A DNA stretch of 64,000 bases, taken from the NCBI GenBank assembly GCA_963804645.1, contig CAWDRG010000009.1, positions 224,001-288,000 of the forward strand, in the 5' to 3' direction. The DNA comes from an uncultured Bacillota bacterium. GTDB lineage: Bacteria > Sysuimicrobiota > Sysuimicrobiia > Sysuimicrobiales > Segetimicrobiaceae. The notes beneath the pieces are model-generated. The model did not search any database. It was not told the DNA's origin and saw only the letters and a list, made by a program, of their open reading frames with translations. The position numbers and the translations under genes were made by a program. This document shows positions 9,148 to 30,406 of this stretch, piece after piece. Position 1 is the stretch's first letter, and every line of letters begins with the position of its first letter.

Positions 9148-11142
9148 GTGACCACTGACGAGCACGCGTATCCGGTCGAGGTCGCGCGCGACGTCTTAAT
9201 CCCCATGCCGGACGGGGCGCATCTCGCCGCCACGCTCCATCGGCCGGCAGCCGATGGGCGCTGGCCCGCCATCATCACGCTGATGCCGTACCACAAGGAC
9301 GGTCGCGGGGGGCGGGGCTCCACCGAGGCGGTCCATCACCATTTCGCGCACCGCGGCTATGCGGCGCTGACGGTGGACCTGCGAGGCCTCGGAGGCTCCG
9401 AGGGGCTCAACGCGTATCCGTTCGACCCACAGGAACGCCGTGACGGGCACGCGGCGGTCGAGTGGGCCGCCGGACAGCCGTGGTGCACCGGGAACGTCGG
9501 CATGTGGGGCACCTCCTACGGCGGCATCACTGCGCTCAGCGTCGCCTCCACCCGGCCCCCGCACCTCCGTACGATTATCCCGGTGCATGCGTGCTCGGAT
9601 ATCTATGAGGACTTCCTCCGGCCGGGCGGCTGCCGCGGCGGATCATGGTCGGAGGGGGACTGGGGCGCCCGCATGATCGCCTATAATCTGACCCCGCCGC
9701 TGCGTCAGGATCCCGACGGCCGCTGGGCGCGCCAGTGGCTCGAGCGCCTGGAGCACGCGCGGCCCTGGATCCTCAGCTGGCACGAGCACCCGTCGCACGA
9801 CGATTTCTGGCGCACGAGGGCGATCCCGTACGATCAGATCGAGGTGCCAGTGTTCGCCGTCTGCGGCTGGCGCGATCTGTATCCCGACGCCACCGTGACG
9901 TACTATGAGGGGATCAACGCGCCGAAGCGCCTGCTCATGGGACCGTGGAAACACGTGTTCCCCGATCTCTCGCCGGAGGAGCCGGTCGGGTTCCTGCGCG
10001 AGATGGACCGCTGGTGGGATCGGTGGCTCAAGGGCGCGGTCAACGGGATCGGGGACGCGCCGCCGGTCACGTTGTACGTCCAGGGCGCGCGGCGCTGGCG
10101 CGAGACCTCGGCGTGGCCTCCGCCCGGCACGGCGCTGTACACCCTGTACTGCACTCCGGCGCGCACGCTCGAGACCCGACCGCCCGCCGGGGACGCCGAC
10201 CCTCTGGTGTGGCACCACGATCCGACCGTGGGCCTCGCCTCCATCCCGTGGGATCCGTGGGCGGCGCACGTCACCCGGCCGGCGGATCACTCGCCGGACG
10301 ACCACCGGTCGCTCACGTACGACACGAGCCCGCTGGCACGCCCGCTCGAGGTGATCGGCACCCCCACGGCCGCGCTCCATCTCGCCGCAGGGGGCACGGA
10401 CCCTCGCGTCGTGGTTAGGCTCTGCGACGTGGCGCCTGACGGGAGCTCCACGCTCGTGACGACCGGCTGGGCGAGCGGGATCCAGACACGGGATACCCTC
10501 CCCACCAAGATCAGCCTGCGCCCCACCGCGTACGTCTTTCAGGCCGGCCACCGCCTCCGGTTGAGCATCTCCGGGGCCGATTTTCCCCGGCTGTGGCCCG
10601 ATCCCCGCGCGCAGGATCTCGGCGTCTACAGTTCTTCACGATGCCCGTCGCGCGTGGACCTCCCAGTCGCGCCCCACGACCCCGGTGCGGCGCACGTCTT
10701 CGGGCCGCCCGCGTCGGACCTCCACGCCCCGGCGGTGATCGACGGCAGCGAGGAGTGGACGACCCAGCGGACCCTGCAGTCCGCGGTGGCGGCGCTGGAC
10801 GGGGTCAAGGACGAGGCGTTTCGGATCGACGAAGGGGCGCGTCTGCACATCCGCCATCGGTATCGCGCCGCCGTGGAGCAGGACCATCCGCAGACCGCCT
10901 GCGTGACGGCGTCGACCACGGTCCGCGTCGAGCGCCCGGTGGGTGCGGCCACGGTCTCCGTCGAGCTGATCGAGACCACCACCGCGCTGCGCATCGCCGT
11001 AGAGATCACGCTCGAGGGTCAGCCATATTTCGCCCGGCAGTGGGACGTGTCCATCGGTGCCTCCGCATCGGACGACCGCCCGGCCGATGCGGCGAGAGCG
11101 CGCGGCGACCATCCACGCGCGGACGTTCGGCGACCCCGTTAA
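9148..11142 (+). CDS. CocE/NonD-family serine hydrolase
   Basis: DLRGLGGSEG, nucleophile elbow GMWGTSYGG, GPWKH and a PepX_C-like C-terminal domain. GTG 9148 with SD GAGGAGG. Confidence 0.9.
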   Translation: MTTDEHAYPVEVARDVLIPMPDGAHLAATLHRPAADGRWPAIITLMPYHKDGRGGRGSTEAVHHHFAHRGYAALTVDLRGLGGSEGLNAYPFDPQERRDGHAAVEWAAGQPWCTGNVGMWGTSYGGITALSVASTRPPHLRTIIPVHACSDIYEDFLRPGGCRGGSWSEGDWGARMIAYNLTPPLRQDPDGRWARQWLERLEHARPWILSWHEHPSHDDFWRTRAIPYDQIEVPVFAVCGWRDLYPDATVTYYEGINAPKRLLMGPWKHVFPDLSPEEPVGFLREMDRWWDRWLKGAVNGIGDAPPVTLYVQGARRWRETSAWPPPGTALYTLYCTPARTLETRPPAGDADPLVWHHDPTVGLASIPWDPWAAHVTRPADHSPDDHRSLTYDTSPLARPLEVIGTPTAALHLAAGGTDPRVVVRLCDVAPDGSSTLVTTGWASGIQTRDTLPTKISLRPTAYVFQAGHRLRLSISGADFPRLWPDPRAQDLGVYSSSRCPSRVDLPVAPHDPGAAHVFGPPASDLHAPAVIDGSEEWTTQRTLQSAVAALDGVKDEAFRIDEGARLHIRHRYRAAVEQDHPQTACVTASTTVRVERPVGAATVSVELIETTTALRIAVEITLEGQPYFARQWDVSIGASASDDRPADAARARGDHPRADVRRPR

Positions 11143-11164
11143 GCCAATGCGAAGGTTGGGCAAA
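11138..11164. promoter_or_regulatory. Possible Pho-box array upstream of ppx-ppk1 (inverted relative to the other arrays)
   Basis: GTTAA (11138), GCGAA (11149) and GCAAA (11160) are 11 bp apart. No -10 hexamer at the 10-nt spacing seen in the other sites. Confidence 0.4.
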
Positions 11165-11227
11165 AACTCGGTCGGACGCCGTGGGCCGGTGGAGGAGCCT
11201 GGGCGAAAATGCCGCACTTCTATAAGT

Positions 11228-12268
11228 ATGGCATTCTCGATTCCGAGTTCGGCGAGCCCCCCCATACGGCGGCAGTCGGCCTATCGGGGAGACGACGCGA
11301 ATCAGCGCGCCGCGGTCATCGACATCGGCAGCAACACCATCCATCTCCTCGTCGCGGACTGCCGCCCCAACGCGATCTGGCCGATCCGCGATCTCCGCGT
11401 GCGCGCCAGGCTCGGGATCGCGGTGGCGGACACGGGCGTGCTCGGCACGATGCGGATTCGGGCGGCGGCGTCGGTGGTCCGCACGTTCGCCGCCGAAGCG
11501 CGCGCGTGGCGGGCCGGCGAGATTATGGTCCTGGGGACCCACGCGGTCCGCGCCGCCGCCGACCGCGGTGCGCTCGCCGACGCGGTTGAGACCGCGACCG
11601 GCCTCCGGGTGCACGTGCTGACGCCCGAGCAGGAGGCCACGCTGTGTCTGGCCGGCGCCTCGCTCGGGCCCCTGCCGGCGGCGCCGTTTCTGAGTGTCGA
11701 TATCGGCGGAGGCAGCTGCGACGTGGCCGCGGTCGGCGCGTCCGGCGTCCGGGGCATTACGTCGGTACCCGTCGGATCCGGGGTCCTGGCGGCTCGGGAT
11801 TTCGACGGCGATCCACCGTCCGCGGCCAAAGTGGACCGTGCCTCCGAGCGGCTCGCCGCCCTGTTCGAGGCGGCGCTGCCCGGCCACGCGGAGTTCCCCG
11901 AAGCGGTGGCGACGGGGGGCGCCGCGAGGCGCGTGGGGCGTCAGTTGACCGATCAGCAGGGCACGGCCGCAGGAGAGGCGTCCCAGTTGCTGAATGTGGT
12001 CGCACGGCTGCTGCACTCTCCTTCGACGCGCTGGCCGCACCCCGTGAAGCCCGCACGGGCCGCGACCGCGCGCGCGGGCGGCGCGATTTTGCGGACGATC
12101 ATGATCCGGTGGCGCATCCCGCAGTGGCGCATCAGCCCGTACGGACTGCGCGAAGGAGCGCTGGCGCTCCGGGCGCGCGGGCAGAGCCTGGACGCGGCGT
12201 CGGCGCCCCCCACGCGCGCGCGGCATCCCCACGTCCTGGAGGGATCGAGTGGGCATCATCGAGCCTGA
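11228..12268 (+). CDS. ppx: Ppx/GppA-family exopolyphosphatase (short form, start uncertain)
   Basis: AVIDIGSNT, EQEA, DIGGGS and GLREG motifs of the ASKHA fold. Overlaps the ppk1 start. Confidence 0.85.
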   Translation: MAFSIPSSASPPIRRQSAYRGDDANQRAAVIDIGSNTIHLLVADCRPNAIWPIRDLRVRARLGIAVADTGVLGTMRIRAAASVVRTFAAEARAWRAGEIMVLGTHAVRAAADRGALADAVETATGLRVHVLTPEQEATLCLAGASLGPLPAAPFLSVDIGGGSCDVAAVGASGVRGITSVPVGSGVLAARDFDGDPPSAAKVDRASERLAALFEAALPGHAEFPEAVATGGAARRVGRQLTDQQGTAAGEASQLLNVVARLLHSPSTRWPHPVKPARAATARAGGAILRTIMIRWRIPQWRISPYGLREGALALRARGQSLDAASAPPTRARHPHVLEGSSGHHRA

Positions 12269-14324
12269 GCACCAGGTAGCGACGACCGAGGCACACCGGT
12301 TCTTCAACCGGGAGTTGTCGCAGCTCCAATTCAACGAGCGCGTCCTCGATCAGGCGCGGCCGGGCGCGCACCCGCTGTTGGAGCGGCTCAAGTTCCTGGC
12401 GATCTCCGATTCGAATCTCGACGAATTCCTCTCGATCAACTTCTCGCTCCTGCTGGATCGCGTGGACGTGGGCGATACCACGCTGGCGGAGGACGGGTAC
12501 ACCGCGACCGAAGAGGCGCGCCGCGTCCGGGACGCGCTGCGGCGGTTCATGCACGAGCAGCGGCGGATCTTCCACCAAGAACTCACCCCCGAACTGGATG
12601 CCGCGGGCATTCACGCGCGTGCGTACCGCGCGCTCACGCCCACCCAGCAGGCCACGCTGCGGCAGTGGTTTCTCGATGAGGTGTTTCCGGTCTGCACGCC
12701 GCTCGCGGTGGATCCGGCGCATCCGTTTCCCTTTATCTCCAACTTCAGCCTCAACCTCGGCCTCATGCTGCGGGGTGACGACGGCGACGCATGGTTCGCG
12801 CGGATCAAGGTGCCGACCGTGCTCCCCCGCCTAGTGAAGGTGCCCGAGACCCCCGAGGGGCGGGACGCGTCGTTCGTCTGGCTGGAAGACATCATGGCCA
12901 ACAACCTGGACGCCTTCTATCCCGGCGTGGAGATCCGCGACGCCTTTCTCTTCCGGCTGATCCGCGACGCCGAGATGGACCTGACCGAGATCGAATCGGC
13001 GACCCTGCGCGAGACGGTGCAGGCCGGCATTCGCCGCCGCCGATTCGGCGAAGCGGTGTGCATCCAGCTCGAGCGCGAGATTCCCGACAGCGCGGCCCGA
13101 GAGCTGGCGGCGCGGCTGGACCTGTACCCCGAGGACCTGTACGTCGTCGGCCACCCCCTGGGGCTCACGGATCTCATGCAGCTGATGGAGCTGGACCGGC
13201 CCGATCTGAAGGACCCCGTGCTGGTCCCGCGGCTGCCGGCCGCGGTGACCGCCCCCGCCGATCTCTTTACCGCCATCCGCCGAGAGGACATCTTGCTCTA
13301 TCACCCGTACGAGTCGTTTGCGCCGGTGCTGGACTTCATCGCGCGGGCCTCCGTGGATCCCGACGTCCTGACCATCAAACAGACCCTGTATCGGGTCGGA
13401 CGCGCGTCGCCGCTGGTGCAGTCCCTGCTGCAGGCGGTGGACCACGGCAAGCAAGTCGCGGTGGTCCTCGAGCTGCAGGCGCGCGGGGATGAGGAGAACA
13501 ACATCGATTGGGCTCAGACGTTGGAACGGGCCGGCGCGCACGTCAGCTACGGGGTGATCGGCCTCAAGACCCACGCGAAGATCTCGCTCGTGGTCCGGCG
13601 CGAGGGGCGGCGGCTCCGCCGGTACGTGCACATCGGCACCGGCAACTACAGCGCGAACCCCTACGCGGATCTCAGCCTCTTCACGTGCCATCCGGGCATC
13701 GGCGCCGACGCGACGGCCCTCTTCAACGTGCTCACCGGCCGCGGCCGGAAGGACCGGTACGAACATCTCCTGGTGGCGCCCGCCTCGCTGCGGCGGGGCA
13801 TCCTGAGCCGGATCGGCCGGGAGATCGAGCGGCACCGCGTGCACCACGACGGGCACCTGATCCTCAAGACCAACGCCCTGGTGGATCCCGAGATGATCGA
13901 CGCCCTCTACGAAGCCTCGCGGGCGGGCGTGCGCGTGGACCTGCTCGTGCGGGGCATGTGCAGCCTCCGACCCGGCGTGCCGGGCCTGAGCGAGACGATC
14001 CGCGTCATCAGCCTCGTCGGCCGCTTCTTGGAGCACAGCCGCATCTACTACTTCCACAACGGCGGCGAAGAAGAAGTCTTGGTGGGGAGCGCCGACCTGA
14101 TGGAGCGCAATCTCGACCGGCGCGTGGAGATCCTGACGCCCGTCCTCCACCCAGGACTGAGACACGCGCTGAAGACCCGCATCCTGGATCTGCAGCTGCG
14201 CGACAACATCTCCGTCACCGAGTTGGACGCGGAGGGCGTGTACCGGCCGGTCCGGCGCGGCGACGCGCCCGTCGTCGACGCCCAGCTCGAGTGGGCCACC
14301 AAAGATCTCTCGCTGATGGGGTGA
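12249..14324 (+). CDS. ppk1: Polyphosphate kinase 1
   Basis: FFNRELS, DPAHPFPFIS, HPYESF, IKQTLYR, KTHAK (phospho-His), GTGNY, RFLEHSR and SADLMERNLDRRVE motifs. Confidence 0.97.
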   Translation: MGIIEPEHQVATTEAHRFFNRELSQLQFNERVLDQARPGAHPLLERLKFLAISDSNLDEFLSINFSLLLDRVDVGDTTLAEDGYTATEEARRVRDALRRFMHEQRRIFHQELTPELDAAGIHARAYRALTPTQQATLRQWFLDEVFPVCTPLAVDPAHPFPFISNFSLNLGLMLRGDDGDAWFARIKVPTVLPRLVKVPETPEGRDASFVWLEDIMANNLDAFYPGVEIRDAFLFRLIRDAEMDLTEIESATLRETVQAGIRRRRFGEAVCIQLEREIPDSAARELAARLDLYPEDLYVVGHPLGLTDLMQLMELDRPDLKDPVLVPRLPAAVTAPADLFTAIRREDILLYHPYESFAPVLDFIARASVDPDVLTIKQTLYRVGRASPLVQSLLQAVDHGKQVAVVLELQARGDEENNIDWAQTLERAGAHVSYGVIGLKTHAKISLVVRREGRRLRRYVHIGTGNYSANPYADLSLFTCHPGIGADATALFNVLTGRGRKDRYEHLLVAPASLRRGILSRIGREIERHRVHHDGHLILKTNALVDPEMIDALYEASRAGVRVDLLVRGMCSLRPGVPGLSETIRVISLVGRFLEHSRIYYFHNGGEEEVLVGSADLMERNLDRRVEILTPVLHPGLRHALKTRILDLQLRDNISVTELDAEGVYRPVRRGDAPVVDAQLEWATKDLSLMG

Positions 14325-15716: not shown

Positions 15717-16139
15717 ATGTGGGCGGAGGACAAGGCCAGCCGTGCACTCGGCATGGCCGTCGTCGCCATCGGACCGGGCCGCGCCACGCTCCGGATGACG
15801 GTGCGGGCAGACATGTGCAACGGGCACCACGTCTGCCACGGGGGCATGATCTTCAGCCTCGCCGATTCAGCCTTCGCGTTCGCATGCAACTCCCACAACA
15901 AGATCACGGTCGCGGGCAACTGCGCGGTCACGTTCATCGCGCCGGCCCGCGAGGGCGACCTCCTGATCGCCGAAGCGGAGGAGCGACATCGGGGCGGGCG
16001 GTCCGGCGTCTGCGACGTGACGGTCTCCGACGCGCACGGCAAGCTCATCGCGATCTTCCGCGGCCACTCGATCCAGATCCAGGGAGAGTTGGTGCCGGGT
16101 CTCACCGCCGGCAGCTCCAACCCCGAACCGGGCCGCTAG
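15717..16139 (+). CDS. paaI: PaaI-type acyl-CoA thioesterase (start may be ~50 nt upstream)
   Basis: Hotdog-fold signature NGHHVCHGGMIFSLADSAFAFACNS and IAIFRG. Confidence 0.9.
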   Translation: MWAEDKASRALGMAVVAIGPGRATLRMTVRADMCNGHHVCHGGMIFSLADSAFAFACNSHNKITVAGNCAVTFIAPAREGDLLIAEAEERHRGGRSGVCDVTVSDAHGKLIAIFRGHSIQIQGELVPGLTAGSSNPEPGR

Positions 16140-16190
16140 GGCCCCGGCATATCCGCGCAGCGCATCCTGGAGAGGATGCACGAAGGACAG

Positions 16191-17261
16191 TCAAGAATCG
16201 CCGGCGTCCCGCGGCGGAGCGATGCGCTCGAGGATGAACGCCACGAGCCGGTCGACGTCGGTCCGTCCGCTCACCACGTACACCGAGATCGCCTCAGCGG
16301 CCTTGAGCAGCGCCGCCTGCCTGGCAGCCTGATCCGGCGCCGTGATGTCGTAGACGCCGACGGCCTTCACCACCTGCCCCAACGCCGCGGCGCTTTCGTC
16401 GGGCGACGCCGGCTGCACGCTCCACCCCCGGCCGCTCGGGCTCCATCGAAGCAGGAACAATACGCGCAGGGGGCCGCGCAGACGGACCGTGCCGGCTCCG
16501 TAGATCGCGTCGACGTCGACGTCGTGCTTCCGCTCGAGCGTCCAGAGCTGGTCCGCCGTGAGGGGCGAATAATTCCGCCGCTCGTCCGGAGTCAGCAGGG
16601 CCGTCAGACGGGGGATGTGCAGGAGCGTCCCGGGGTTGACGCGCGGACGCTTCGGCACCCCGACCATCTCCGTGCCGCCGGGGGCCGCCCGGATGAACAA
16701 CCGATCGTTGGTCACCAGGTGCTGGTGGCGGTCCACCAGCATGAGCGCCAGCGTGGACTTCCCGGACCCGGACGACGACGCGAAGGCGATCCCCCCGGTC
16801 TCACCGAGGATGGCGGAGGCGTGCAGCATCACAAAACCGCGCCGCACCATCGCCTTCGCGAATACCATCGCGACCGCGTTGACCGCCTGGTTGAAGTTCG
16901 CGTCCAGGTCGCCCACCACGTAGTGCTCGGGCTCCGCAACGTAGATCACGACGCCGGTCCGCCGCTTCAGGATCACGCGCGCATCGGCCGCATCGTAGAA
17001 CGCCTCCTTGATCCCGGCAGCGCTCGCGCGGCGGGGGATGTCGACGAGGCGCGCCGCATCGTACACCGGCGTGCCCATGAAGAGGGACACGCGGCCCGCC
17101 GGGTCCGGCGGCTCCGCGACGACGTAGGGGGCAAAGTAACTCCGCAGCCGGGTATCGAGGAGGGCCGCATTCGTCTGAACCCGAAGCGCGACGCCCGCGA
17201 TCTCGAGCCCGAACGTGGTCTCAGGTCGAGAGGCTTGGAGAACCGATTCCAGTTCGGTCAT
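16191..17261 (-). CDS. HprK-related kinase B (GAK system)
   Basis: LHASAI, P-loop SSSGSGKST, LVTNDR, GVPKRPRVNPGT and LWTLERKHDV motifs. Confidence 0.85.
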   Translation of the reverse strand: MTELESVLQASRPETTFGLEIAGVALRVQTNAALLDTRLRSYFAPYVVAEPPDPAGRVSLFMGTPVYDAARLVDIPRRASAAGIKEAFYDAADARVILKRRTGVVIYVAEPEHYVVGDLDANFNQAVNAVAMVFAKAMVRRGFVMLHASAILGETGGIAFASSSGSGKSTLALMLVDRHQHLVTNDRLFIRAAPGGTEMVGVPKRPRVNPGTLLHIPRLTALLTPDERRNYSPLTADQLWTLERKHDVDVDAIYGAGTVRLRGPLRVLFLLRWSPSGRGWSVQPASPDESAAALGQVVKAVGVYDITAPDQAARQAALLKAAEAISVYVVSGRTDVDRLVAFILERIAPPRDAGDS

Positions 17262-18151
17262 GAGGGGGCCGTCCCGTCACCACACCGACGACGTGCTCCG
17301 CGTAGAGGCGCGCGGCATCGATGCCTTGAGTGTGCCAGAGTCCGCCGAAGCCGCCAAACGCGCTCACCTCATAGGCCAGGTACCCGTCCGGCCCCTCGAC
17401 AAGGTCGACGCCGGTGAAGGTGAGCCCAAACACGTCCGCGGCCCGCAGGGCCAGCTGCTCGATCTCCGGCGTGACGCGGACACGTCTCATAGTGGCCGCC
17501 CGCCGCGGTCGTGGTCAGCCACGTATCCGGCCGCGCGACGCGGTAGTACGCGCCTAGCACGCGCCCCGCCAGCACCGCCACGCCGATGTCCCACCCGGCG
17601 TGCGGCACGTACTCCTGGACGTAAAACGGCATCTGCCACGCGCGCTGCCACTCGCGGAGCGCCGTCGGGAGCGACGCGTCGGCGGTCAGCACCACCATGC
17701 CTTTCCCCTTCGACGTGAACAGGGGCTTAAGAACCGCGCGGCCCCAGCGCCGCACCGCCCCCGCCGCATCCTCCGCGGTCTCGGCCACGACCGTGCGCGG
17801 GATCGGAATATTCCCCGCGCTCAGCCGCTGCGTCATGCGGTACCGGTCCTGGGCGTCGGCGATCGCCCGGGCGGGGCTGAACACGGACACGCCGCGGATC
17901 TCGAGCTGGCCGAGCAGATGCACCCGGCTCGGCGCCAGCGGATCTGTCGTCGATCCCAGCTTCTTAACGATCACCGCGTCGAGCTGCCCAAGATCGACGC
18001 CGCGGCACCACACGCCGCCGGACGGCAAGTCGATCACGCAGTCGGCGGCGGCGAACACGACGGTCTCGCATCCGCACGTCTCCAGCGCGCCGCGGAGTTG
18101 GTCCGTGGACCGTGCACCCGGGATCCCGCAGACCCCGACGCGCAGGGTCAC
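17221..18151 (-). CDS. GAK-system ATP-grasp (RimK-like) ligase with a single-base frameshift near 17480
   Basis: GTG 18151 is coupled to the upstream stop (GTGA). VLKPLFTSKGKGM, YVQEY and WLTTTAAGGHY are in one frame; FTGVDLVE and YEVSAFGGF continue in the adjacent frame. Confidence 0.85.
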
Positions 18152-19776
18152 GGCTGCGCCGCCTGCCGCAGCAGCCGCACGCCGCGCCGGAGCAGCGCGG
18201 CGGCGTGCACCGCTTCGATGACCACCCGCACCGAGGTGATGCACGACCGAGCGAGGCTGAGGGCGAGCCGCGGCTCAAACGCCGCGTCGGCGCGCTCCGT
18301 GGCGAACTCCCGCGCAAACTCCTCGACCATTTGGTTGACGCGGGCGATGTCGTCGCGAAGCGTCGCCGACAGGTCCGGGCGACGGACCATCGACAGCAGA
18401 AACACGCTGACGTCCTGCAGGTAGTCGCCCAGGCGCGAGCGGTGCACGTCGATGAACTTCACCTGTCCGGTGCGGTCGTTGTACAGCACGTTGTTGGCGT
18501 TAAAGTCGCCGTGCAGCCAGACCGAGCACGGCGGCGCGAGCGACGGCTCCAACGTTTCCGCGTGCGCGAGCAGGTCGTCGAGCCGCACCACGGCGCCGTC
18601 CACGGAGGTGCCGGCTTCCGCCTCGGCCCGCAGCTCCGGGTGCAGCGCGAACACCTCCGGAAGGCGGCGCCGGATCTGCGCCACGTAGTCGACGGCGGGC
18701 GGCGTGGGCACGAGCGTGATCTGCCATACCTGCCGGACCGCGTCCAGCACCCGCTGCGTCGCCGCGAGCTTCGCGTCTCGCGAGGCATCCGAGAGGTACA
18801 GCTCGGAAAGCAGCGTGCTGTCAACGAACTCGCGCAGCAGCGCCTGCCGGTCCTTGACCGTGACCGAGCCGAGGACGCGCGGTGTGAGATCCCCGGGGAT
18901 GCGCTCCCACACCTTGAGCTTCTCGGTCTCCTCTTGAATCTTGCGCCGCGACCCCTCTTTGTACAGCACGGTGCCGTGCCGACCGGCGACGCGCGCCACG
19001 ACGGCGCCGCTGATCCCGTCCCAATACGGGCGAAACTCCAGCCCGCCCCCGGCGGCCTCCGGCATGAGCAGCCCGAGCTGCTGGTACTGCGAAAACTTGA
19101 GCCGCCGGCCGGTCATCAGGAAGATCGCCTGCTCTCCTACGTTGAGCACATAGTCCGCGACTTTCTCGAGGTATTTCATCACCGCGAGGGTGTGGAGGAG
19201 GTACGGCACCTCGGCCGGCGATGCCTGCATCTGCCGGCGCGCCTCGGTGAGGCACGCGACGTAGTGCGTGTCGAACTCCGACTCCCGCAGGCAGGCCCGC
19301 CGGGCCTGCTCCAGATCCCGCCGGACGACCGCGTCGATCACCTCCGAGACCGCCGTCAGCGCACAGGTCTCGAGCGGCTCGAACGTGAAGTTCCCCGGGG
19401 CGATCCCCTCGCGCACGAGCAGCCGCACGCGCTTCGCGATGTGGGTGCCGGCGTCGCCGATCCGCTCGAGATTCAGCGCGATCTTCACGGTGGCCCGCAC
19501 GGTGCGGAGCCCGTCCTCGGACAGGCCCCCGGTCGCGGCAAGCGCGAAGCACCGCTCCTCGAGCTCGAGGTTGAGGTTGTCGACGGCGTCGTCCCGTTCG
19601 ATGATCTCTTCGGCGAGGGTCAGGTCGCGGGTGTGGTAGCAGCGCAGCGCTCGCTCGAGCTGGTCGACGACAAGCCGACCGAGCTTCGTCACTTCACTTT
19701 GCAGCCCGCTGAGCAGCGTGTCGCTGGCCAAGGATGGCGTTCCCGATTCGACGTCCGCCGGGATCGCGCGGCGCAT
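18148..19776 (-). CDS. PhoU-domain / APH-like phosphotransferase fusion (GAK system)
   Basis: Two N-terminal PhoU repeats (DDAVDNLNLELEE, LERIGD, LEKVADYVLN). C-terminal kinase-fold motifs HGDFNANN and FID. Confidence 0.88.
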   Translation of the reverse strand: MRRAIPADVESGTPSLASDTLLSGLQSEVTKLGRLVVDQLERALRCYHTRDLTLAEEIIERDDAVDNLNLELEERCFALAATGGLSEDGLRTVRATVKIALNLERIGDAGTHIAKRVRLLVREGIAPGNFTFEPLETCALTAVSEVIDAVVRRDLEQARRACLRESEFDTHYVACLTEARRQMQASPAEVPYLLHTLAVMKYLEKVADYVLNVGEQAIFLMTGRRLKFSQYQQLGLLMPEAAGGGLEFRPYWDGISGAVVARVAGRHGTVLYKEGSRRKIQEETEKLKVWERIPGDLTPRVLGSVTVKDRQALLREFVDSTLLSELYLSDASRDAKLAATQRVLDAVRQVWQITLVPTPPAVDYVAQIRRRLPEVFALHPELRAEAEAGTSVDGAVVRLDDLLAHAETLEPSLAPPCSVWLHGDFNANNVLYNDRTGQVKFIDVHRSRLGDYLQDVSVFLLSMVRRPDLSATLRDDIARVNQMVEEFAREFATERADAAFEPRLALSLARSCITSVRVVIEAVHAAALLRRGVRLLRQAAQP

Positions 19777-19818
19777 TCCGCGACCCCGGCGGCGGTAGGA
19801 GGATTGGAAAAAGTAGGC

Positions 19819-20139
19819 TTAGTCTCGCGTGCCCGCCCGCACGTGACGATCTTCCATTTCGCGCGGATCGACGGTGATCTCCAACGTCTCCGCCGCCGCC
19901 GCGTACTCGGGTGTCCATGACAGCTCCACCGCGAGGTGTCCCGCCGCCTTGTCCCTCTTCCCCTCGGCCTGGATCTCCACCGCCAACATCGCGGTCGGCG
20001 TCAGCTGGAGCGTCTCGCCGCCGGCCGACAGCCTGACGACGCCGCGGCGCAGCCCGTCCGCGATACGCACAAGACACTCGGCCGCCTGCGTCGCTTCGAG
20101 CGTGGCCGAGAACGCGAACTTGCGGGTGCGCTTACCCAT
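19819..20139 (-). CDS. Amphi-Trp domain protein
   Basis: AAECLVRIADGLRRGVVRL...LAVEIQAE...LAVELSW pattern. SD AAGGAGG. Confidence 0.8.
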   Translation of the reverse strand: MGKRTRKFAFSATLEATQAAECLVRIADGLRRGVVRLSAGGETLQLTPTAMLAVEIQAEGKRDKAAGHLAVELSWTPEYAAAAETLEITVDPREMEDRHVRAGTRD

Positions 20140-20178
20140 CGTCAAGCCTCCTTGGCTGTGCGAGCGGCGCGGCCGCCG

Positions 20179-20445
20179 TCAGGGCACGGTCGTCACGCTC
20201 AGCGGCAGACGCCAGCGCAGGTCGATCTGCATCGACCCTTCTTCGCTGCCTTCCTTCGCGCGGATCTCCAGTTGGATCACCTGACCGATGTGGTAGGCGT
20301 ACCGCCGGCCGCTCGACCGGATGACCAGCGTCCCGTGCATCAGGCCGAGCGAGAGCTGGTTCATCAACTCGGCCGCGTCGGTGTTCGGCAGCGACGTGGC
20401 CACCTTCAGCGGTTCTTGTACGCGCTCGCGAATCTTCGAGCTCAC
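20179..20445 (-). CDS. Second, divergent amphi-Trp domain protein
   Basis: GTG coupled to the PHP stop (GTGA). AAELMNQLSLGLMHGTLVI...LEIRAKE...MQIDLRW. Confidence 0.7.
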   Translation of the reverse strand: MSSKIRERVQEPLKVATSLPNTDAAELMNQLSLGLMHGTLVIRSSGRRYAYHIGQVIQLEIRAKEGSEEGSMQIDLRWRLPLSVTTVP

Positions 20446-21254
20446 TGCGCACGCCCCGCCATTTCGGACACCGGTACCTCCGTGACCGGGAGATCGCGAT
20501 AGGCGGCGCGGGCCGCTCTCGCCTTGGCGATGCGCTTGTACGCCCCGCTGATCTGCACCGCGATCGGTCCGTAACTCTGGCTCTCGACCGCGGCGCGGCC
20601 CGTACGGATCTCCGAAGCCACTGAAGTCTGCGTGAGCTCGTCGACCGCCAGCACCGTCGCCTTGATGCCGACCTGCGCCCAGAAATGGGCGTCGCTTCCA
20701 CCCACGACGGGCACGCGCAGCTTCGCGGCCACCGTCCGCACCCGATCGTCCGACACAAAATCCTTGCCGTTCAGTTCCAGCGCGTCGAGCGCGCCGAGCT
20801 TGTCTTTGCCCACCTTCGCCAGCTCCTTGCCGGGCCGGACCATGTGCGCGCCGATCACGAACGCCCCGACCGCGTGGGCCACCGCGACCGCCTCGGCAAA
20901 CGGAGGCCGGTACCCGTGCGTGGCAGGCTTCGTCAGCGCCCCGTCCAGTTCCCGTAACTGGCCGACGGTCGCCAACACGATCAGGTCGCATCCCTGTGCG
21001 ATGCTCAGCTCCGCGCCCGACAGAAGCCGGAATCCATCCAGCCCCTCGTACGCCCCCGCCGCCTCACTGTATCGAAACTCGCGCCCCAAGCAGTCGTGGA
21101 TTTCCCAATACTGCACCGCGTGCATATGCTCGACGAGTGCCAACCCGTCCAGCCCGAGGCGCCGCGCTTGGGCAACGAACTGGTGTACCGTTCTGATTGC
21201 GAAGGGGAACGTCTTCGAGAGCTTAGCGTGGGTGTGCAGGTCGATGCGCTTCAC
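20442..21254 (-). CDS. PHP-family metallophosphoesterase
   Basis: IDLHTH, VEH, GAELS, GAH, ELNGK and GGSDAH metal-binding motifs. GTG 21254 with SD GAGGAG. Confidence 0.88.
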   Translation of the reverse strand: MKRIDLHTHAKLSKTFPFAIRTVHQFVAQARRLGLDGLALVEHMHAVQYWEIHDCLGREFRYSEAAGAYEGLDGFRLLSGAELSIAQGCDLIVLATVGQLRELDGALTKPATHGYRPPFAEAVAVAHAVGAFVIGAHMVRPGKELAKVGKDKLGALDALELNGKDFVSDDRVRTVAAKLRVPVVGGSDAHFWAQVGIKATVLAVDELTQTSVASEIRTGRAAVESQSYGPIAVQISGAYKRIAKARAARAAYRDLPVTEVPVSEMAGRAQ

Positions 21255-21383
21255 GGCCTCGTCTCCTCGATGTCGGCTGCGAATATGCGGCAACTGTTGG
21301 CAGACCCGGACGGGTTTCCAACCCGCCAGGGCCGTTCAAGTGTTCGCCACGAACGTACCAGCCCACCTTCATCTCTCAATAAC

Positions 21384-21459
21384 ACTCTAGGCGCTGGTAC
21401 TTAAACAAAAGTGAAGACTTTCGTAATGGGAGGCAAAGATAACGTTAATACACGGTTAA
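21384..21459 (-). promoter_or_regulatory. Pho-box-type promoter of the GAK operon
   Basis: Minus strand: TTAAC, TTAAC, TTTGC, TTACG, TTCAC, TTAAG, each 11 bp apart (21459 to 21400), then 10 nt, then -10 TAGAGT (21389-21384). Confidence 0.8.
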
Positions 21460-21647
21460 GGGCATTCCGAAGAAGAACCTTCCGCGGCGGGTCTCGGGGA
21501 CCCCGGGCGTCCACAAGTCATCCGGGGATGCCGATCGCGGCGACCCCGGATGACTCGTGCCGGGAAGCGGGGCTCCGAGCGGAGGCGCGTCCTTACAGCG
21601 ACGCCGATCTTGCCGCCGACCGCTGGGATTCCGCTGGCGATCTCCCC

Positions 21648-22884
21648 CTATTTCTTCGCGAGCAGCGTATCGATCTGCTGTGCCATCGCATCCGCCGCCT
21701 GCTGGGGCGACAGCTCACCGACCAGAATCTTCTGCCCGTTCGTGATGATCACGGTCTGGATGCCGGCCCAGTCTCCGACGGTCGGCAGTGCTCTTCGCGT
21801 CCTTCAGCGCCTGACCGAAGATGGCGTACTCCGGGTTGTTCCACGGCGGCGCCTTGTACACGGACAACCGGGCCGGGGTGCGGTTCATGATCTTCCCCAT
21901 GTTCTCCGGCCTGGCGAGCCACTGGAGAAACACGCGAGCCGCGGCCACGTTCTGCGCGCCGACCGGCACGCCCATCGCCCAGCCTCCGGAGACGTTGACC
22001 TTGTCGGGGGAGAGCACCATCCCCCACCTGAGGTCCTTGTGCTGCGAGAACTCGTCGAACGCGGTCGACGTGCTCGTGAGCATCCCGACCTTGTTCGCCT
22101 CAAACAGGGGGATGACGTCCCGGGTCGTCGTGAAGTTCGGGGTGCCGTCCGGCACGACGTGGTACTTCGTGTAGAGGTCTGACCAGAACGTCAGGCCCGC
22201 GACGCTCTTTGGGGAGTTGATCGTCGCTTTGGTGCCGTCCGCACTGAGGAAATCCCCGCCGTTCGCCCAGATCATCGCGGCGAGGAGGCCCATGACGTTG
22301 GACGGGTCGCTCAGGTCCGCGGCGATCCCGATCCCGAACTGCCCCGGAATCGTCAGCTTGCGCGCGATCTGCAGCATCTCGGGGTACGTCCAGTTGTCGG
22401 TGGGATACGGCACCCCCGCCTTGTCGAAGACGGTCTTGTTGTAGTAGAAGACGTAGGACGCCGCCCGGTTCGGGATCGCGTACTGGTGACCGTTGTAGCG
22501 GCTGGAGGCCCACACCCCCGGGGAGTAGTCCTTGACGTCCAGCGTCTTCGCGACGTCGTCGAGCGGCTGCAGGAGGCCCTTGGCGGAGACCGTCGACGCC
22601 CACGAGACGTCGAGGTCGATCACGTCCGGCGGGGTGCCGCCGAGCGCGGACGCGCTGAACTTGTCGAGGTATCCGTTGATCGGCAGCGGTTCGATCTTGA
22701 GCGTGATCCCCGGATAATCTTTCGCCCACAGCTGCATGGCGATCGGGACCTGCGTGTCCCACCAGCTCCCGACCCACACGGTCACCGTCCCGCCCGCCGT
22801 GGCGGCGAACGTCGACACGTTCATGGTGAGCACTCCCACCAGCGCGAGCAGCAGGGCAATACGACGCAGCGGTGCGGTGCGCAT
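21648..22884 (-). CDS. Carbohydrate-type ABC substrate-binding protein, frameshift near 21790
   Basis: Signal peptide, GTPPDV, YAIP and YYNKTVFDKAGV motifs. The expected C-terminus (LPTVGDWAGIQ...LSPQQAADAMAQQIDTLLAKK*) is in another frame ending at 21648. Confidence 0.85.
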
Positions 22885-24279: not shown

Positions 24280-24939
24280 CTAGACGTTCAGTTCCTTGAG
24301 CGTGCCGGTCACCATGTAGATGACGCGCTCGGCGATGTTGGTCGCGTGGTCGCCCATGCGCTCCACCGCCTGCGCCGCCATCAACAGATGAGTCGCGCGC
24401 TCAATGCTCCTGGGATCCTCGATCATGTAGGTCAGCAACTCGCGGAACACCTGGCTGTAGAGGTGATCGACGTCGTCGTCCCGGGCCGCCATCCGCGCGG
24501 CCAGCCCAACGTCGTGGCGCACAAACGCATCGAGGCCGTCCCGCAGCATCTCGCGGACGATCTCTGACATCCGCGGGATGTCAATCAGCGGCTTGAGCAG
24601 CGGCTCAGAGGCGATGCGCAGCACCATGCGGGCGATGTCCTCGGAGTGGTCCGCGATGCGCTCCAGGTCGATCGTCATCGCCCAGATCGAGGCGATCGTC
24701 CGGAGGTCCTTCGCCATCGGCTGCTGGGTCGCCATCAGGCGCACGCACCGTTCCTCGAGCTCGAGGTGCAGGGCGTCGATGACGTTGTCGGAGGCGACGA
24801 TCTCTTGGGCGAGCACCGTGCTGCGCGCCCGCAGCGCGTCGATCGACCGGCGCACCGAGTCCTCGACCAGGGTGCCCATGCGCAGGAGGTCGTCGCTGAG
24901 CTGCCGCAGATCCTGATCAAACGACTCACGCGTCGGCAT
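24280..24939 (-). CDS. phoU: Phosphate signalling complex protein PhoU
   Basis: QQPMAKDLR, DLERIADH, KPLIDIPRM and ERMGDHATNIAE motifs. Lies downstream of pstB. Confidence 0.97.
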   Translation of the reverse strand: MPTRESFDQDLRQLSDDLLRMGTLVEDSVRRSIDALRARSTVLAQEIVASDNVIDALHLELEERCVRLMATQQPMAKDLRTIASIWAMTIDLERIADHSEDIARMVLRIASEPLLKPLIDIPRMSEIVREMLRDGLDAFVRHDVGLAARMAARDDDVDHLYSQVFRELLTYMIEDPRSIERATHLLMAAQAVERMGDHATNIAERVIYMVTGTLKELNV

Positions 24940-25025
24940 ATTAGCCCTCTGTTTTTCGCGCACGGCGCAACAGATCCTGCCCTTGGGCCGCGGAGGACCC
25001 AGACCGCGGGGGCCAGTCGGACCGA

Positions 25026-25856
25026 TCAGCCAAACCGGCCGGTGATGTAGTCCTCGGTGCGCTTGTCCTGCGGACGCGTGAACATCTCGGACGTCGGGCC
25101 CGATTCGACCAACTCGCCCGAGAGCATGAACGCGGTGGTGTCGGAGACACGGGCCGCCTGCTGCATGTTGTGCGTGACGATCACGACCGTCAGGGTTTCC
25201 CGCAGCGTCTTCGCCAGTTCCTCGATCTTCAGCGTCGAGATCGGGTCGAGGGCGGACGCCGGTTCGTCCATCAGCAGAACCTCCGGCTCCACCGCGAGCG
25301 CCCGTGCGATGCACAGCCGCTGCTGCTGCCCGCCGGACAGGCTGGTGCCCGCCTTCCCGAGCGAGTCCTTGACCTCGTTCCACAACGCGGCGCCGATCAG
25401 GCTGCGCTCGACGACCTCGTCGAGCCGCCGGCGGTCGCGAACGCCGGACAGCCGCAGGCCCGACACCACGTTGCCGTAGATCGACATCGTCGGGAACGGG
25501 TTGGGGCGCTGGAACACCATGCCGATCCGGCGCCGCACCGCCACGGGGTCGACGTTCGGCGCGTAAATGTCCTCGCTGTCCAGCATCACCTTGCCGTCGA
25601 CCCGAGCGCCCGGCACGACCTCGTGCATCCGGTTGAGACAGCGAAGAAAGGTGGACTTGCCGCACCCCGACGGGCCGATGATCGCCGTGATCCGGTTCGT
25701 CAGGATGCCGATCGACAGCGCCTTCACGGCGTGGTTCTTGCCGAAGTGGGCGTTTAGGCTCTCGATCTTGAGGCGTATCGTGGAGGTCCCGCCGGCTTCC
25801 GCCGAGGGCGCATACGCCGGAAGGACGCGACTCATGCTTGCTGATTCTACACCCAT
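25026..25856 (-). CDS. pstB: Phosphate ABC transporter ATPase
   Basis: [34 protein letters not shown] and [10 protein letters not shown] motifs. Confidence 0.97.
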
Positions 25857-25862
25857 CGACCC

Positions 25863-26732
25863 TTACCTCCCCTTAGAGAATCGCTTGTGCGTGGCGACGC
25901 GTGCCGAGACGTTGAGCACGAGTGTCAGCGTCATCAAAAGTAGCGCGGCTCCCCACGCCTGGCGGTGCCAATCGCTATATGGCGCGATCGCATAGTTATA
26001 CAGCTGCACGGTCAGTGAGGCCATCGGCTGATCCAAACGCAGAGACCAGAACTGGTTGTTGAACGCTGTGAACAGGAGCGGCGCCGTCTCGCCTCCGATG
26101 CGGGCAACGGCGAGCATGACGCCTGTGATGACGCCGGCCATCGCACTGGGCAGGGTCACGCGCAGCGTGGTGACCCACCACGGGATGCCGAGCGCGAGCG
26201 AAGCTTCACGCAGTGACTGGGGAACGAGCCGCACCATCTCCTCCGTCGTTCGCATCACGATTGGAATCATCATCAGCCCGAGCGCGATCCCGCCGGCGTA
26301 GCCTGAGAAATGGTGCGTCGGTATGACGATCAGCGTGTACACGAACACGCCGATCACGATGCTCGGGACGCCGTTCAGGACATCCGCGGTAAACCGGATC
26401 CACCACCCGAGCTTGCCGTGGCCCGCGAGCTCGGAGAGAAACAGACCCCCCAGGATCCCAACCGGGATCCCGACACAGGAGCCGAGCACCATCAGGATCA
26501 GGGTGCCGACAAGCGCGTTCGCCATGCCCCCACCGAGCTCACCGGTCGGAGCGGGCGTCTGCGTGAAGAACGCCCAGTTGAGGGAGGTCGCACCCTGCAG
26601 GATGACGTATCCGAGGACGCTCGCCAGGGGTGCGATCGCGATGAGCACCGCGACAAAGCAGAGCGACGTCATCACGACGTCGACGATCCGACGTCGCCGA
26701 ATTTCCGCTGTCGGGAGCGCGATGGTGCTCAT
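25863..26732 (-). CDS. pstA: Phosphate ABC transporter permease
   Basis: GGMANALVGT, GVPSIVIG, LREASLALG and ARIGGETAPLL motifs. Confidence 0.96.
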   Translation of the reverse strand: MSTIALPTAEIRRRRIVDVVMTSLCFVAVLIAIAPLASVLGYVILQGATSLNWAFFTQTPAPTGELGGGMANALVGTLILMVLGSCVGIPVGILGGLFLSELAGHGKLGWWIRFTADVLNGVPSIVIGVFVYTLIVIPTHHFSGYAGGIALGLMMIPIVMRTTEEMVRLVPQSLREASLALGIPWWVTTLRVTLPSAMAGVITGVMLAVARIGGETAPLLFTAFNNQFWSLRLDQPMASLTVQLYNYAIAPYSDWHRQAWGAALLLMTLTLVLNVSARVATHKRFSKGR

Positions 26733-27721
26733 ATCAACCCCACCGGCCGTGCGACATGGGACACGAGCCAGCGCGCGGCCGCGTTCACGATGAGCGACAC
26801 GATGAACAACACCAGGGCCATCTCGATGAGCGAGGACAGGTAGAGATCGGTCGTCGCCTCGGAGAATTCGTTTGCGAGGGCGGCGGCGATTGTGTAGGCG
26901 GGCTGGAACAGGGACGCCGAGATCTGCGGCCGGTTGCCGATCACCATCGTCACGGCCATCGTCTCACCGAACGCGCGCCCGAGGCCGAGGATGATCGCCC
27001 CGATGATCCCGGTCCGTCCGAACGGCAGCACGGCGCGCCGGATCACTTCCCACCGTGTCGCACCGAGCGCGTACATCGCTTCGCGCTGGTCTTGCGGCAC
27101 GGCCCGCAACACGTCGCGCGACACCGACGAAATGATCGGGATCACCATGATCGCCAAGATGATGCCTGCGGCGAGCATGCCGATCCCATATGGCGGCCCG
27201 CTGAACAGCGGCGACCACCCGAACGCGGTTGAGAGCGCCGGCTCGACCGCAAACCGCACCCACGGTGCGAGCACGAAAATGCCCCACAGCCCTAGGATCA
27301 CGCTCGGGACCGCAGCCAAGAGTTCAACCACGAACGACAAGATCACCGACGTACCGGAGATCGAGAGTTCTGCCAGGTAGATGGCCACGCCGAGGCTGAT
27401 CGGGACGCCAATGATCAGCGCGATCGTCGACGAAACGATCGTGCCGTACACGAACGGTAGCGCCCCGAAGATACCATGGACCGGATCCCAGCGCGATGTC
27501 CACAAGAACGCGGGCCCGAACTTCTGAATCGCGATTTGAGAGGCAAGAACGAGATTCAGCGCGATCGCCGCCACGAACACAATGACGACGAGGCCGAACG
27601 CTGTGAGGACCCCCCGAAATAGGCCATCCGCCCAGCGGGCCCTGCCCCGGCGGTCGGCGCTCGCCCGGGGCGGCCCGCCGGTCTGACCCGCCTCCTGCTG
27701 GCGCACCGCTTGATCACCCAC
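26729..27721 (-). CDS. pstC: Phosphate ABC transporter permease
   Basis: WDPV..FGALP, ELLAAVPSVILGLWG and LGRAFGETMAV motifs. Confidence 0.96.
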   Translation of the reverse strand: MGDQAVRQQEAGQTGGPPRASADRRGRARWADGLFRGVLTAFGLVVIVFVAAIALNLVLASQIAIQKFGPAFLWTSRWDPVHGIFGALPFVYGTIVSSTIALIIGVPISLGVAIYLAELSISGTSVILSFVVELLAAVPSVILGLWGIFVLAPWVRFAVEPALSTAFGWSPLFSGPPYGIGMLAAGIILAIMVIPIISSVSRDVLRAVPQDQREAMYALGATRWEVIRRAVLPFGRTGIIGAIILGLGRAFGETMAVTMVIGNRPQISASLFQPAYTIAAALANEFSEATTDLYLSSLIEMALVLFIVSLIVNAAARWLVSHVARPVGLI

Positions 27722-27781
27722 TATCTGACCACTCCCTCGAACGGGGCGCAGCTACCGGGTGGCGCCCTCCCCGCTCATACC

Positions 27782-27846
27782 ACGATACCGGTCGGCGGCG
27801 AATCGCAGGTGACTGAAGTGTTATGCGATTATTAACGCCCCGTTAA
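27782..27846 (-). promoter_or_regulatory. Pho-box-type promoter of pstCAB-phoU
   Basis: Minus strand: TTAAC, TTAAT, ATAAC, GTCAC, TTCGC at 11-bp period (27846 to 27798), then 10 nt, then -10 TATCGT (27787-27782). Confidence 0.8.
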
Positions 27847-27890
27847 AGCAACTCCGAACGGCTCATTTCACCGCTCGTGGAGTATCGTGC

Positions 27891-28034
27891 TCAGATGCCG
27901 ACAAGCCGCACGAAAAGAAACGCCGCCACGACGACGCAGCCCAGCCACAGCGCCACGATCGCCGCAATCCGAAGGTCAACCGGCCAATCTTCCGGCTGTA
28001 AAAACGTCGGATCGTGATCGTCGTCGTCCTGCAT
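27891..28034 (-). CDS. 47-aa single-pass membrane microprotein (not in ORF track)
   Basis: SD GGGAGG before ATG 28034. Translates as MQDDDDHDPTFLQPEDWPVDLRIAAIVALWLGCVVVAAFLFVRLVGI*. Has its own upstream promoter. Confidence 0.7.
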   Translation of the reverse strand: MQDDDDHDPTFLQPEDWPVDLRIAAIVALWLGCVVVAAFLFVRLVGI

Positions 28035-28085
28035 CGGCGCCCTCCCAGCAGCGGCACCCGCGTACCCCGATCCGGCGGTGGGACG

Positions 28086-28151
28086 AGTCTATGCATCCGC
28101 AGTTAATCTTGATCGTCGCGCACCGGCAAGAATATGTTAAGAGACGCGCAA
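28086..28151 (-). promoter_or_regulatory. Pho-box-type promoter of the 47-aa microprotein
   Basis: Minus strand: TTGCG, TTAAC, TTGCC at 11-bp period (28151-28125), then TTAAC (28106-28102), then 10 nt, then -10 TAGACT (28091-28086). Confidence 0.65.
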
Positions 28152-28166
28152 GAATTGCGCATGCCG

Positions 28167-29561: not shown

Positions 29562-29563
29562 GC

Positions 29564-30244: not shown

Positions 30245-30320
30245 ACTCACCTCCGGGCCCCCCGGCGCGCTTGGCGCGTCTGAGAGGTTTTTCCGATCTT
30301 TCGGCCCTTGCACGGTCGCG

Positions 30321-30353
30321 GTTAATGCCGGGTTAATCCGCATCGGTTATGCT
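30321..30353 (+). promoter_or_regulatory. Pho-box-type promoter divergent from phoB
   Basis: TTAAT (30322) and TTAAT (30333) are 11 bp apart, then 10 nt, then -10 TATGCT (30348-30353). The same units read TTAAC on the minus strand toward phoB. Confidence 0.65.
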
Positions 30354-30406
30354 CCTCCTTGGATGGCGGTCCGCCGGGGTACGACCGGCGGCGTCACGGA
30401 GGGTGC

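Follow-up and report, generated by a model that had tools for sequence, protein, structure and literature searches.

A six-gene operon in the genome of an uncultured Bacillota bacterium, read on the minus strand from 21254 down to 16191 of the 64,000-nucleotide stretch of DNA analysed here (the window; positions 224,001 to 288,000 of contig CAWDRG010000009.1, assembly GCA_963804645.1), is a CofD-less, PHP-type variant of the uncharacterised grasp/amphi-Trp/kinase (GAK) system. The operon very probably belongs to the Pho regulon and would thus be under the PhoB-type phosphate-starvation control that the first-pass annotation of the window had proposed. This assignment is well supported in silico because a Pho-box-like array at the operon head ranks high in the genome and exceeds its shuffled versions, the array is conserved in congeners, GAK loci of other lineages carry Pho boxes of their own type, pst genes are linked to a part of the GAK loci, and the core kinase is PhoU-like. 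The combined statement, that a Pho-regulon operon encodes this GAK variant, is likely, with a little less confidence than the regulatory part by itself. The window has a G+C content of 69%, and the scanned genome, which was assembled from metagenome data, comprises 5.3 Mb at 96.8% completeness.

Profile searches gave a family match for each of the six genes, all of which proved to be real and co-oriented as first described:

20442-21254, minus strand: PHP-superfamily metal-dependent phosphoesterase, CehA/McbA-like, GTG start (PF13263 PHP_C, 37.2 bits, cut-off 21.3)
20179-20445, minus strand: amphi-Trp 1, a divergent amphi-Trp-like small protein, GTG start (TIGR04354, 26.4 bits, under the cut-off of 31)
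19819-20139/20145, minus strand: amphi-Trp 2, an amphi-Trp domain protein (TIGR04354, 48.7 bits, cut-off 31; PF20068, 39.8 bits)
18148-19776, minus strand: fusion of PhoU and an APH/choline-kinase-type kinase, 542 residues (TIGR02135, 139.8 bits; PF01895, 105.7 bits; PF01636, 41.7 bits)
17221-18151, minus strand: GAK-type ATP-grasp ligase, a relative of RimK, MptN and LysX, GTG start (TIGR04356, in two frames)
16191-17261, minus strand: HprK-related kinase B with the P-loop GSGKST (TIGR04355, 226 bits, cut-off 200, profile positions 10-348 of 351)

The phosphoesterase scored 53.4 bits against the CehA/McbA model NF038032, under the cut-off of 80, and its GTG start was assigned because in-frame stops lie upstream in the relatives. 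The orthologues of amphi-Trp 1 occupy the same position in relatives. Several genes had been described as joined by GTGA overlaps. Two such start/stop overlaps were found, between the phosphoesterase and amphi-Trp 1 (20445) and between the PhoU-kinase fusion and the ATP-grasp gene (18151), whereas the third gene overlap, of the ATP-grasp and kinase B genes, is 41 nt long. The anti-phage defence models of PADLOC returned no family for the six proteins, with the intact orthologue from the closest relative (L033) standing in for the ATP-grasp protein.

When compared with the GAK system as defined in the databases (TIGR04354-TIGR04358), kinase B and amphi-Trp 2 pass the curated cut-offs. The claimed membership in GAK families holds in full for these two, and in part for the ATP-grasp protein, for which TIGR04356 is the best family over its full length but four intact orthologues score 270-279 bits, under the cut-off of 300; amphi-Trp 1 likewise stays below its threshold. 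No CofD-like member (TIGR04357) is encoded: the best match in the whole genome reached 99.8 bits against a cut-off of 340 and lies far off (C9:1348780-1349706). The XXXCH family (TIGR04358) has no match in the genome, and the same search matched none of 14 control genomes. The lack of the CofD-like member and the presence of a PHP gene had thus both been read correctly. A literature search, with supplementary tables outside its scope, found no paper on the function of GAK, of HprK-related kinase B or of the family accessions. One paper names an amphi-Trp protein, as a table entry among the abundant proteins of Dissulfuribacter (PMC13490349).

The region upstream of the first gene contains the following elements:

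21400-21461, minus strand: Pho-box-like array of six slots exactly 11 bp apart (sequence, matrix scan, shuffles and conservation)
21459-21455, minus strand: first unit, TTAAC
21448-21444, minus strand: second unit, TTAAC
21437-21433, minus strand: third unit, TTTGC
21426-21422, minus strand: fourth unit, TTACG
21415-21411, minus strand: fifth unit, TTCAC
21404-21400, minus strand: sixth unit, TTAAG
21384-21389, minus strand: -10-like hexamer TAGAGT, 10 nt past the last unit, without a -35 consensus
21255-21383, minus strand: predicted 5' leader of about 130 nt, from the comparison of upstream regions
21513-21558, minus strand: hairpin (perfect stem of 11 bp) that separates the array from the solute-binding gene upstream

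The layout of the array had been likened to that of the pstC and pstS promoters, and the three indeed follow one rule of a last unit, 10 nt and TAnnnT. The pstS promoter has TTAAT, 10 nt and TACGGT, and the pstC promoter has a weak fifth unit TTCGC, 10 nt and TATCGT. The same type of unit is also found at the phoB promoter. A matrix of 11 columns was built from the 10 units of the pstC, phoB and pstS promoters only, so that the operon itself did not enter it, and both strands of the genome were scanned for phased arrays. Genome-wide, the GAK array came 11th when arrays of three units were considered and 9th for four units; for six units it came 2nd, and the one array ahead of it was the training site at pstC. 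Its units scored 12.2, 7.5, -4.0, 0.9, 6.5 and 5.4 bits. The array, the phasing and the spacing to TAGAGT stand as originally noted, but good matrix scores are confined to four of the units. The score of the complete array was not reached in any of 5000 dinucleotide shuffles, either of the 396-nt intergenic region or of its AT-rich core of 101 nt. The array had also been called the longest repeat array in the window, which was not borne out: TRF at a minimum score of 30 did not report it, and the pstC array scores higher (38.1 vs 30.4).

Four of the top hits that were not part of the training set precede genes for a phosphonate/phosphite-binding protein (C17:172783-173745, TIGR01098, 249 bits), an acid phosphatase/phospholipase C family protein (C9:610942-612459, PF04185), the phosphonoacetate hydrolase PhnA (C9:642039-643307, TIGR02335, 587 bits) and a UgpB-like binding protein (C17:314809-316101). 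Since these are typical Pho-regulon genes, the matrix acts as a Pho-box detector, and the same matrix predicts the four genes as further members of the regulon. A sigma-70-type -35/-10 scan of 15900-21900 gave no promoter, and two terminator-like sites in the same scan both lie inside the kinase B gene at chance level. The absent -35 fits an activator-dependent promoter, because such promoters are expected to lack it, and is not evidence of function.

Conservation of the operon was analyzed in 41 related genomes. Kinase B exceeded the TIGR04355 cut-off in nine of them (this one included), among which are all six other members of the genus; a looser tally of 17/41 counts the unpublished genome G034, on which no result rests. 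The gene order is shared by the six congeners and by two members of a second genus; four of these also have phoU-pstB within a few kb of the operon. The array and its -10 hexamer are retained in each of the five congeners with upstream sequence (L027, L028, L029, L030 and L033). The shared footprint consists of two strong TTAAC/ATAAC units, a CTTTGCC slot and a GTTAAAC/GTTTAAG unit at the same spacing, followed at the same place by TAGAGT, TAGAAT or TACAGT. The surrounding promoter sequence mostly differs, except in the closest relative, L033. The third slot, CTTTGCC, is kept in all congeners in spite of its poor matrix score. A weaker version of the array is present in L031 and likewise in the second genus.

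Two further elements lie on either side of the promoter. A leader motif of the CGCCGCAYAWTCGCAGC type (around 21276-21292, minus strand), directly 5' of the ribosome-binding site GGAGGAGAC of the PHP gene, is kept in L027-L030 and L033 and could be the -10 region of a second promoter or an RNA element. Rfam, searched with 21150-21720, returned no family for the leader; the sole row was a chance match of a miRNA precursor to the hairpin. The hairpin at 21513-21558 may serve as a terminator or insulator. As a separate observation, TTAAC units are also found just past phoR (28086-28140, minus strand), where the last unit is followed by 10 nt and TAGACT ahead of a small open reading frame (27863-28034) in front of pstC. 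Read from an internal ATG, this frame encodes about 47 residues that are acidic at first and hydrophobic at the end, and its product may be a small Pho-regulated membrane peptide.

The neighbours of the operon were identified with Pfam and NCBIfam, and its placement between ppx-ppk1 and the pst/phoBR genes is as originally described:

11057-12268, plus strand: ppx (PF02541, 108 bits)
12249-14324, plus strand: ppk1 (four polyphosphate kinase domains)
24280-32575, minus strand: phoU, pstB, pstA, pstC, phoR, phoB and pstS
24280-24960, minus strand: separate canonical phoU adjoining pstB (224.9 bits)
29564-30244, minus strand: phoB (PhoB is the best family, at 251 bits against a curated cut-off of 296)

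The intervening genes encode a phosphodiester glycosidase, a thioesterase, a solute-binding protein and UppP.

The linkage to pst genes was then examined across phyla. The kinase B profile identified 157 relatives among species-representative genomes, of which 80 loci with 10-kb flanks were kept; the presence of other genes in these loci was called by tblastn with the proteins of the window. The relatives occur in metagenome-assembled genomes (MAGs) labelled Bacillota, Rokubacteria, Chloroflexota, Planctomycetota, Desulfobacterota, Gamma- and Zetaproteobacteria, Atribacteria and Cytophagales. The gene order seen here, in which an APH-type kinase of about 550 residues and the ATP-grasp protein directly precede kinase B, is that of 72 of the 80 loci, and a PhoU domain was detectable in 36. 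The PHP gene was found in 19 loci, all from Bacillota-like MAGs, Rokubacteria or Chloroflexota; it heads the operon here as in the 18 further loci. Two flavours of locus were distinguished with NCBIfam (77 open reading frames, 11 loci): a PHP type without CofD, and a second type with the GAK CofD-like protein. Calcineurin-like phosphoesterases were found in four non-PHP loci (Pfam) and histidine phosphatases in two (NCBIfam); every locus inspected closely has some phosphoesterase of these three kinds.

At least one of pstS, pstC and pstA lies within 10 kb in 13 of the 80 loci, which supports the proposed linkage between GAK and pst genes. The arrangements of the linkage to pst or phoB differ among Bacillota-like, rokubacterial and Chloroflexota genomes and one Pseudomonadota MAG; in the rokubacterial loci, the GAK operon leads straight into phoB and pstSCAB-phoU on the same strand. 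The polyphosphate link that had been suggested from the neighbouring ppk1 is weak and no general feature, with ppk1 within 10 kb in two of the 80 loci (L035 and L042).

Pho-box types of their own lineage were detected before GAK operons in two further groups, as a scan of other loci had been expected to show. The 7-mer G[CT]AACAC was counted 32 times across eight rokubacterial loci: 11 of the occurrences lie in the GAK promoter (6/8 loci), typically as two copies 33 bp apart, and 8 at pstS promoters. The E. coli-type Pho box, with up to 3 of its 14 positions mismatched, was matched 55 times in 26 gammaproteobacterial loci. Twelve of the matches, against 0.27 expected, fall on the coding strand in the 200-nt stretch that precedes the first kinase gene, and they come from 11 of the loci. 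The signal comes from at least Marinomonas and Marinobacterium, with differing sequences. GAK carriers that can be cultivated include Marinomonas polaris DSM 16579 (L088) and Marinobacterium alkalitolerans (L077), both with a Pho box at the operon, and Mariprofundus sp. EBB-1 (L110), from a further class. A second conserved box of the E. coli type precedes the downstream sub-operon of the gammaproteobacterial clusters, which encodes a calcineurin-like phosphoesterase and amphi-Trp proteins:

L088, about 11096: second box
L057, L072, L077 and L094, about 12513-12549: second box
L064, about 11601: second box

A different kind of repeat was observed in the leaders of six rokubacterial loci (L041-L044, L051 and L054): two to four tandem copies of GTGGA(T/C), about 10 nt apart, lie about 20-70 nt before the PHP start and right before the ribosome-binding site. 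These repeats are unrelated to the Pho-box units.

The PhoU-kinase fusion presumably links the activity of its kinase to phosphate status. Its PhoU domain covers residues 19-225 and scores 139.8 bits against TIGR02135 (cut-off 130.25; profile positions 4-211 of 212), with two PF01895 stretches; the APH/choline-kinase-type domain spans residues about 250-480 and has the HGDxxxxN loop. In the gammaproteobacterial kinases, the N-terminal 230 residues also align to PhoU when profiles are compared (hhalign probability 99.9%, E 2.8e-31, 222 columns), but the domain is degenerate, with the acidic motif partly lost, and is missed by single-sequence searches. A reduced variant was found in Solidesulfovibrio alcoholivorans DSM 5433 (L063:8484-12080), in which a stand-alone PhoU directly precedes kinase B and a GAK CofD-like protein is present; the APH-type kinase and the ATP-grasp protein are missing, and an amphi-Trp protein is encoded on the opposite strand at a distance of 7 kb. 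Similar variants are L062, L070 and L074. Because PhoU is hidden in the gammaproteobacterial kinases and stands alone in Solidesulfovibrio, the PhoU module is a core part of the GAK system. To our knowledge, the GAK family descriptions do not name this nearly universal fusion.

The chemistry of the system is less certain. Our tentative preference, at somewhat below an even chance, is that the enzymes build and dismantle a small molecule, or a tail bound to a carrier, that is phosphorylated and glutamylated, and that the amphi-Trp proteins bind or carry it. A second possibility, for which the chances are clearly lower, is a writer/eraser system acting on proteins, as put forward in the first-pass annotation: kinase B, the PhoU-kinase or both would phosphorylate amphi-Trp at a fixed site, the ATP-grasp protein would glutamylate it and the PHP phosphoesterase would dephosphorylate it, with the modified proteins serving as starvation signal or carrier. 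The two were compared through the amphi-Trp sequences, kinase B and the ATP-grasp protein in turn.

Of 88 loci searched, 79 have amphi-Trp genes, mostly one to three copies, as would suit a protein substrate. Two alignments, one of 91 and one of 46 sequences, share a single invariant Trp and an almost invariant Pro. Neither contains an invariant Ser, Thr, Tyr, His or Asp, and the C-termini vary, which argues against a fixed site of modification; the invariance of the Trp alone favours small-molecule chemistry. C-terminal glutamylation after the manner of S6 or LysW was considered and rejected, since the C-termini are not conserved and no acceptor of the S6/LysW kind, with a conserved C-terminal Glu, was found; acidic tails are present only on the middle rokubacterial copies, where they count for a protein substrate. 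The amphi-Trp 2 model (predicted local distance difference test, pLDDT, 83) has one helix packed on four strands. No solved relative was found (best Foldseek match in the PDB, E 0.95; best VIA-align Z 2.8 over 48,161 chains). A prediction of the complex of kinase B with amphi-Trp 2, run without controls, gave a score of 0.00 and a mark of 0.32 and counts for neither reading.

The P-loop columns of kinase B are invariant among its relatives. By sequence, the protein resembles HprK/P in the P-loop region only (1jb1, E 1.8e-7, about 50 residues), and it scores 16.5 bits against the HPr kinase model TIGR00679, far under the cut-off of 240. HprK/P, its nearest solved sequence relative, is a protein kinase/phosphorylase, in line with a protein substrate. 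The kinase B model (pLDDT 92.9), in contrast, is nearer to whole ATP-dependent phosphoenolpyruvate (PEP) carboxykinase (Foldseek E 4e-8, about 370-400 columns, template-modelling score 0.45-0.55 by query) than to the HprK/P catalytic domain (E 1e-5), which points to small-molecule chemistry; the identity to PEP carboxykinase is 10-16%, with a root-mean-square deviation of 7-9 A.

The ATP-grasp protein divides in a similar manner. After TIGR04356, its best family is that of the small-molecule enzyme MptN (intact orthologues 180-188 bits, full length), which outscores RimK (134-145 bits, with the cut-off of the general family model reached marginally in two of the four orthologues) and LysX (125-138 bits, full length, under the equivalog cut-off). 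Apart from the general RimK-family model, the scores against RimK, LysX, MptN and CofF all stay under the equivalog cut-offs. MptN as the nearest family and the CofD-like transferase of canonical loci favour a small molecule. On the other side, both RimK and LysX modify the C-termini of proteins and are clear relatives, with matches of 87-145 bits for the RimK-family and 76-138 bits for the LysX models. In one Phycisphaeraceae MAG (L058:9956-11506), kinase B and amphi-Trp share one 516-residue frame. This sole fusion in the 80 loci also speaks for a protein substrate, although it may be an assembly artefact. Both observations reduce the confidence in a small-molecule product, as does the general rule that neither fold similarity nor the closest family establishes a function.

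Several points weigh against the regulatory assignment. The matrix is based on only 10 units and is not perfectly specific, since it also scores TTAAT-type direct repeats upstream of kdpA (C20:24514-27675), which are probably the site of another OmpR-type regulator, and repeats before an OmpR-type regulator gene. The array ranks just ninth to eleventh when four or three units are considered, and two of its six units, the third and fourth, are weak. PhoB itself falls below the curated cut-off of its own family, though no other family fits it better. Elsewhere, 67 of the 80 loci have no pstS, pstC or pstA within 10 kb, 15 of the 26 gammaproteobacterial loci lack a box of up to 3 mismatches in the 200-nt window, and several loci from a single genus do not count as independent cases. 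Binding by PhoB, induction and the position of the transcript start are predictions, and the 16 runs listed for the locus include no RNA run. The repeats might instead be bound by another OmpR-family regulator or act as an UP-like element, the proximity of the pst and pho genes being a historical accident. The scores at kdpA and at the regulator gene, the modest ranks and the two weak units would all fit such an explanation, but it is improbable. It does not account for the lineage-specific Pho-box types before GAK operons in three phyla, for the pst/phoB linkage in differing arrangements, for a PhoU domain within the core kinase or for a spacing to the -10 hexamer identical to that of pstS and pstC. 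Control by PhoB is therefore preferred.

The ATP-grasp gene had been recognised in the first pass as RimK-like, and the family assignment stands; the gene is split in this assembly, which had escaped notice. One extra base near 17475-17477 places positions 1-221 of the TIGR04356 profile in the frame 17369-18244 (186.7 bits) and positions 223-284 in the frame 17221-17490 (66.2 bits). A real frameshift would mean that the operon is decaying and inactive in this organism, whatever its role elsewhere. The extra base is there in the window sequence, and in three peat-metagenome runs from two studies (X1, X2 and X4) the contigs that lack one letter at 17475 are 97-98% alike; a fourth run had no cover at this position. 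Being 2-3% divergent, these contigs come from another strain and show that close relatives are intact rather than this very strain, a point that counts against an intact operon here. Decay is nonetheless quite improbable, slightly more so than control by a regulator other than PhoB. A second one-base insertion was found 4.3 kb off, near 21792-21794, in the unrelated upstream SBP_bac_1 solute-binding gene (minus strand, 21715-22884 and 21648-21800), where about 50 residues at the C-terminus are encoded in another frame; this insertion, too, is absent from the same contigs and from L033. Two such insertions within 4.3 kb are a pattern typical of consensus errors and make these likelier than gene decay. 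None of the remaining five genes is interrupted, and they are well conserved (those matched by tblastn share 57-92% identity with relatives); the ATP-grasp gene is a single open frame in all eight relatives examined. The split is thus probably an assembly error, and the operon would be intact in nature. A conserved or programmed frameshift was ruled out by the same eight intact genes.

A mechanism can be outlined on this basis. Phosphate limitation would be sensed by the PhoR/PhoB pair encoded 7-9 kb away, and phosphorylated PhoB would occupy the array (21461-21400) in the -35 position and recruit RNA polymerase to TAGAGT (21389-21384). One transcript of about 5.2 kb with a leader of about 130 nt would result, and its six genes would be translationally coupled through the two GTGA overlaps and the 41-nt overlap. 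The products would form one phosphate-gated enzyme set, in which the activity of the APH-type kinase is presumably tied to phosphate status by its N-terminal PhoU half. Kinase B would act as a P-loop phosphotransferase of the PEP-carboxykinase/HprK fold, the ATP-grasp protein as a glutamate-type ligase like MptN, RimK or LysX, and the PHP phosphoesterase would reverse the phosphorylation or cleave a phosphodiester; the two amphi-Trp proteins would be non-catalytic partners.

More speculatively, GAK might be an unrecognised, phylum-spanning branch of the phosphate-starvation response. In it, the PhoU-kinase, the HprK/PEPCK-fold phosphotransferase (possibly phosphate- or pyrophosphate-dependent like HprK/P), the glutamate ligase and interchangeable phosphoesterases would reversibly charge amphi-Trp or a ligand carried by it, and the charged form would signal or buffer phosphate status. 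This full scheme is unlikely to hold in every part. Already the tie of GAK to the Pho regulon would bring a multi-enzyme module into an otherwise well-mapped bacterial response to phosphate starvation. The promoter and synteny ties to the Pho regulon, together with PhoU in the core kinase, make the function of GAK experimentally approachable and offer a testable clue to the role of a widespread system, spanning many phyla, that is known as a database label.

The proposed regulation resembles known systems in its plan and departs from them in detail. The cyanobacterial SphR-type Pho box consists of PyTTAAPyPy(T/A) repeats with an 11-bp period. As in PhoB/PhoP-dependent promoters, exact 11-bp direct repeats here take the place of the -35 and are followed by a -10-like hexamer; the predicted site has six slots, four of them good. 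Compared with PhoU, the N-terminal 225 residues of the fusion match over 208 of the 212 TIGR02135 positions, above the cut-off, and automatic annotation may consequently name the fusion plain PhoU. The conserved acidic columns of PhoU are kept in the PHP-type loci and in several other lineages. The domain differs from PhoU proper in being fused to a kinase rather than standing alone, in a genome that has a separate canonical phoU next to pstB.

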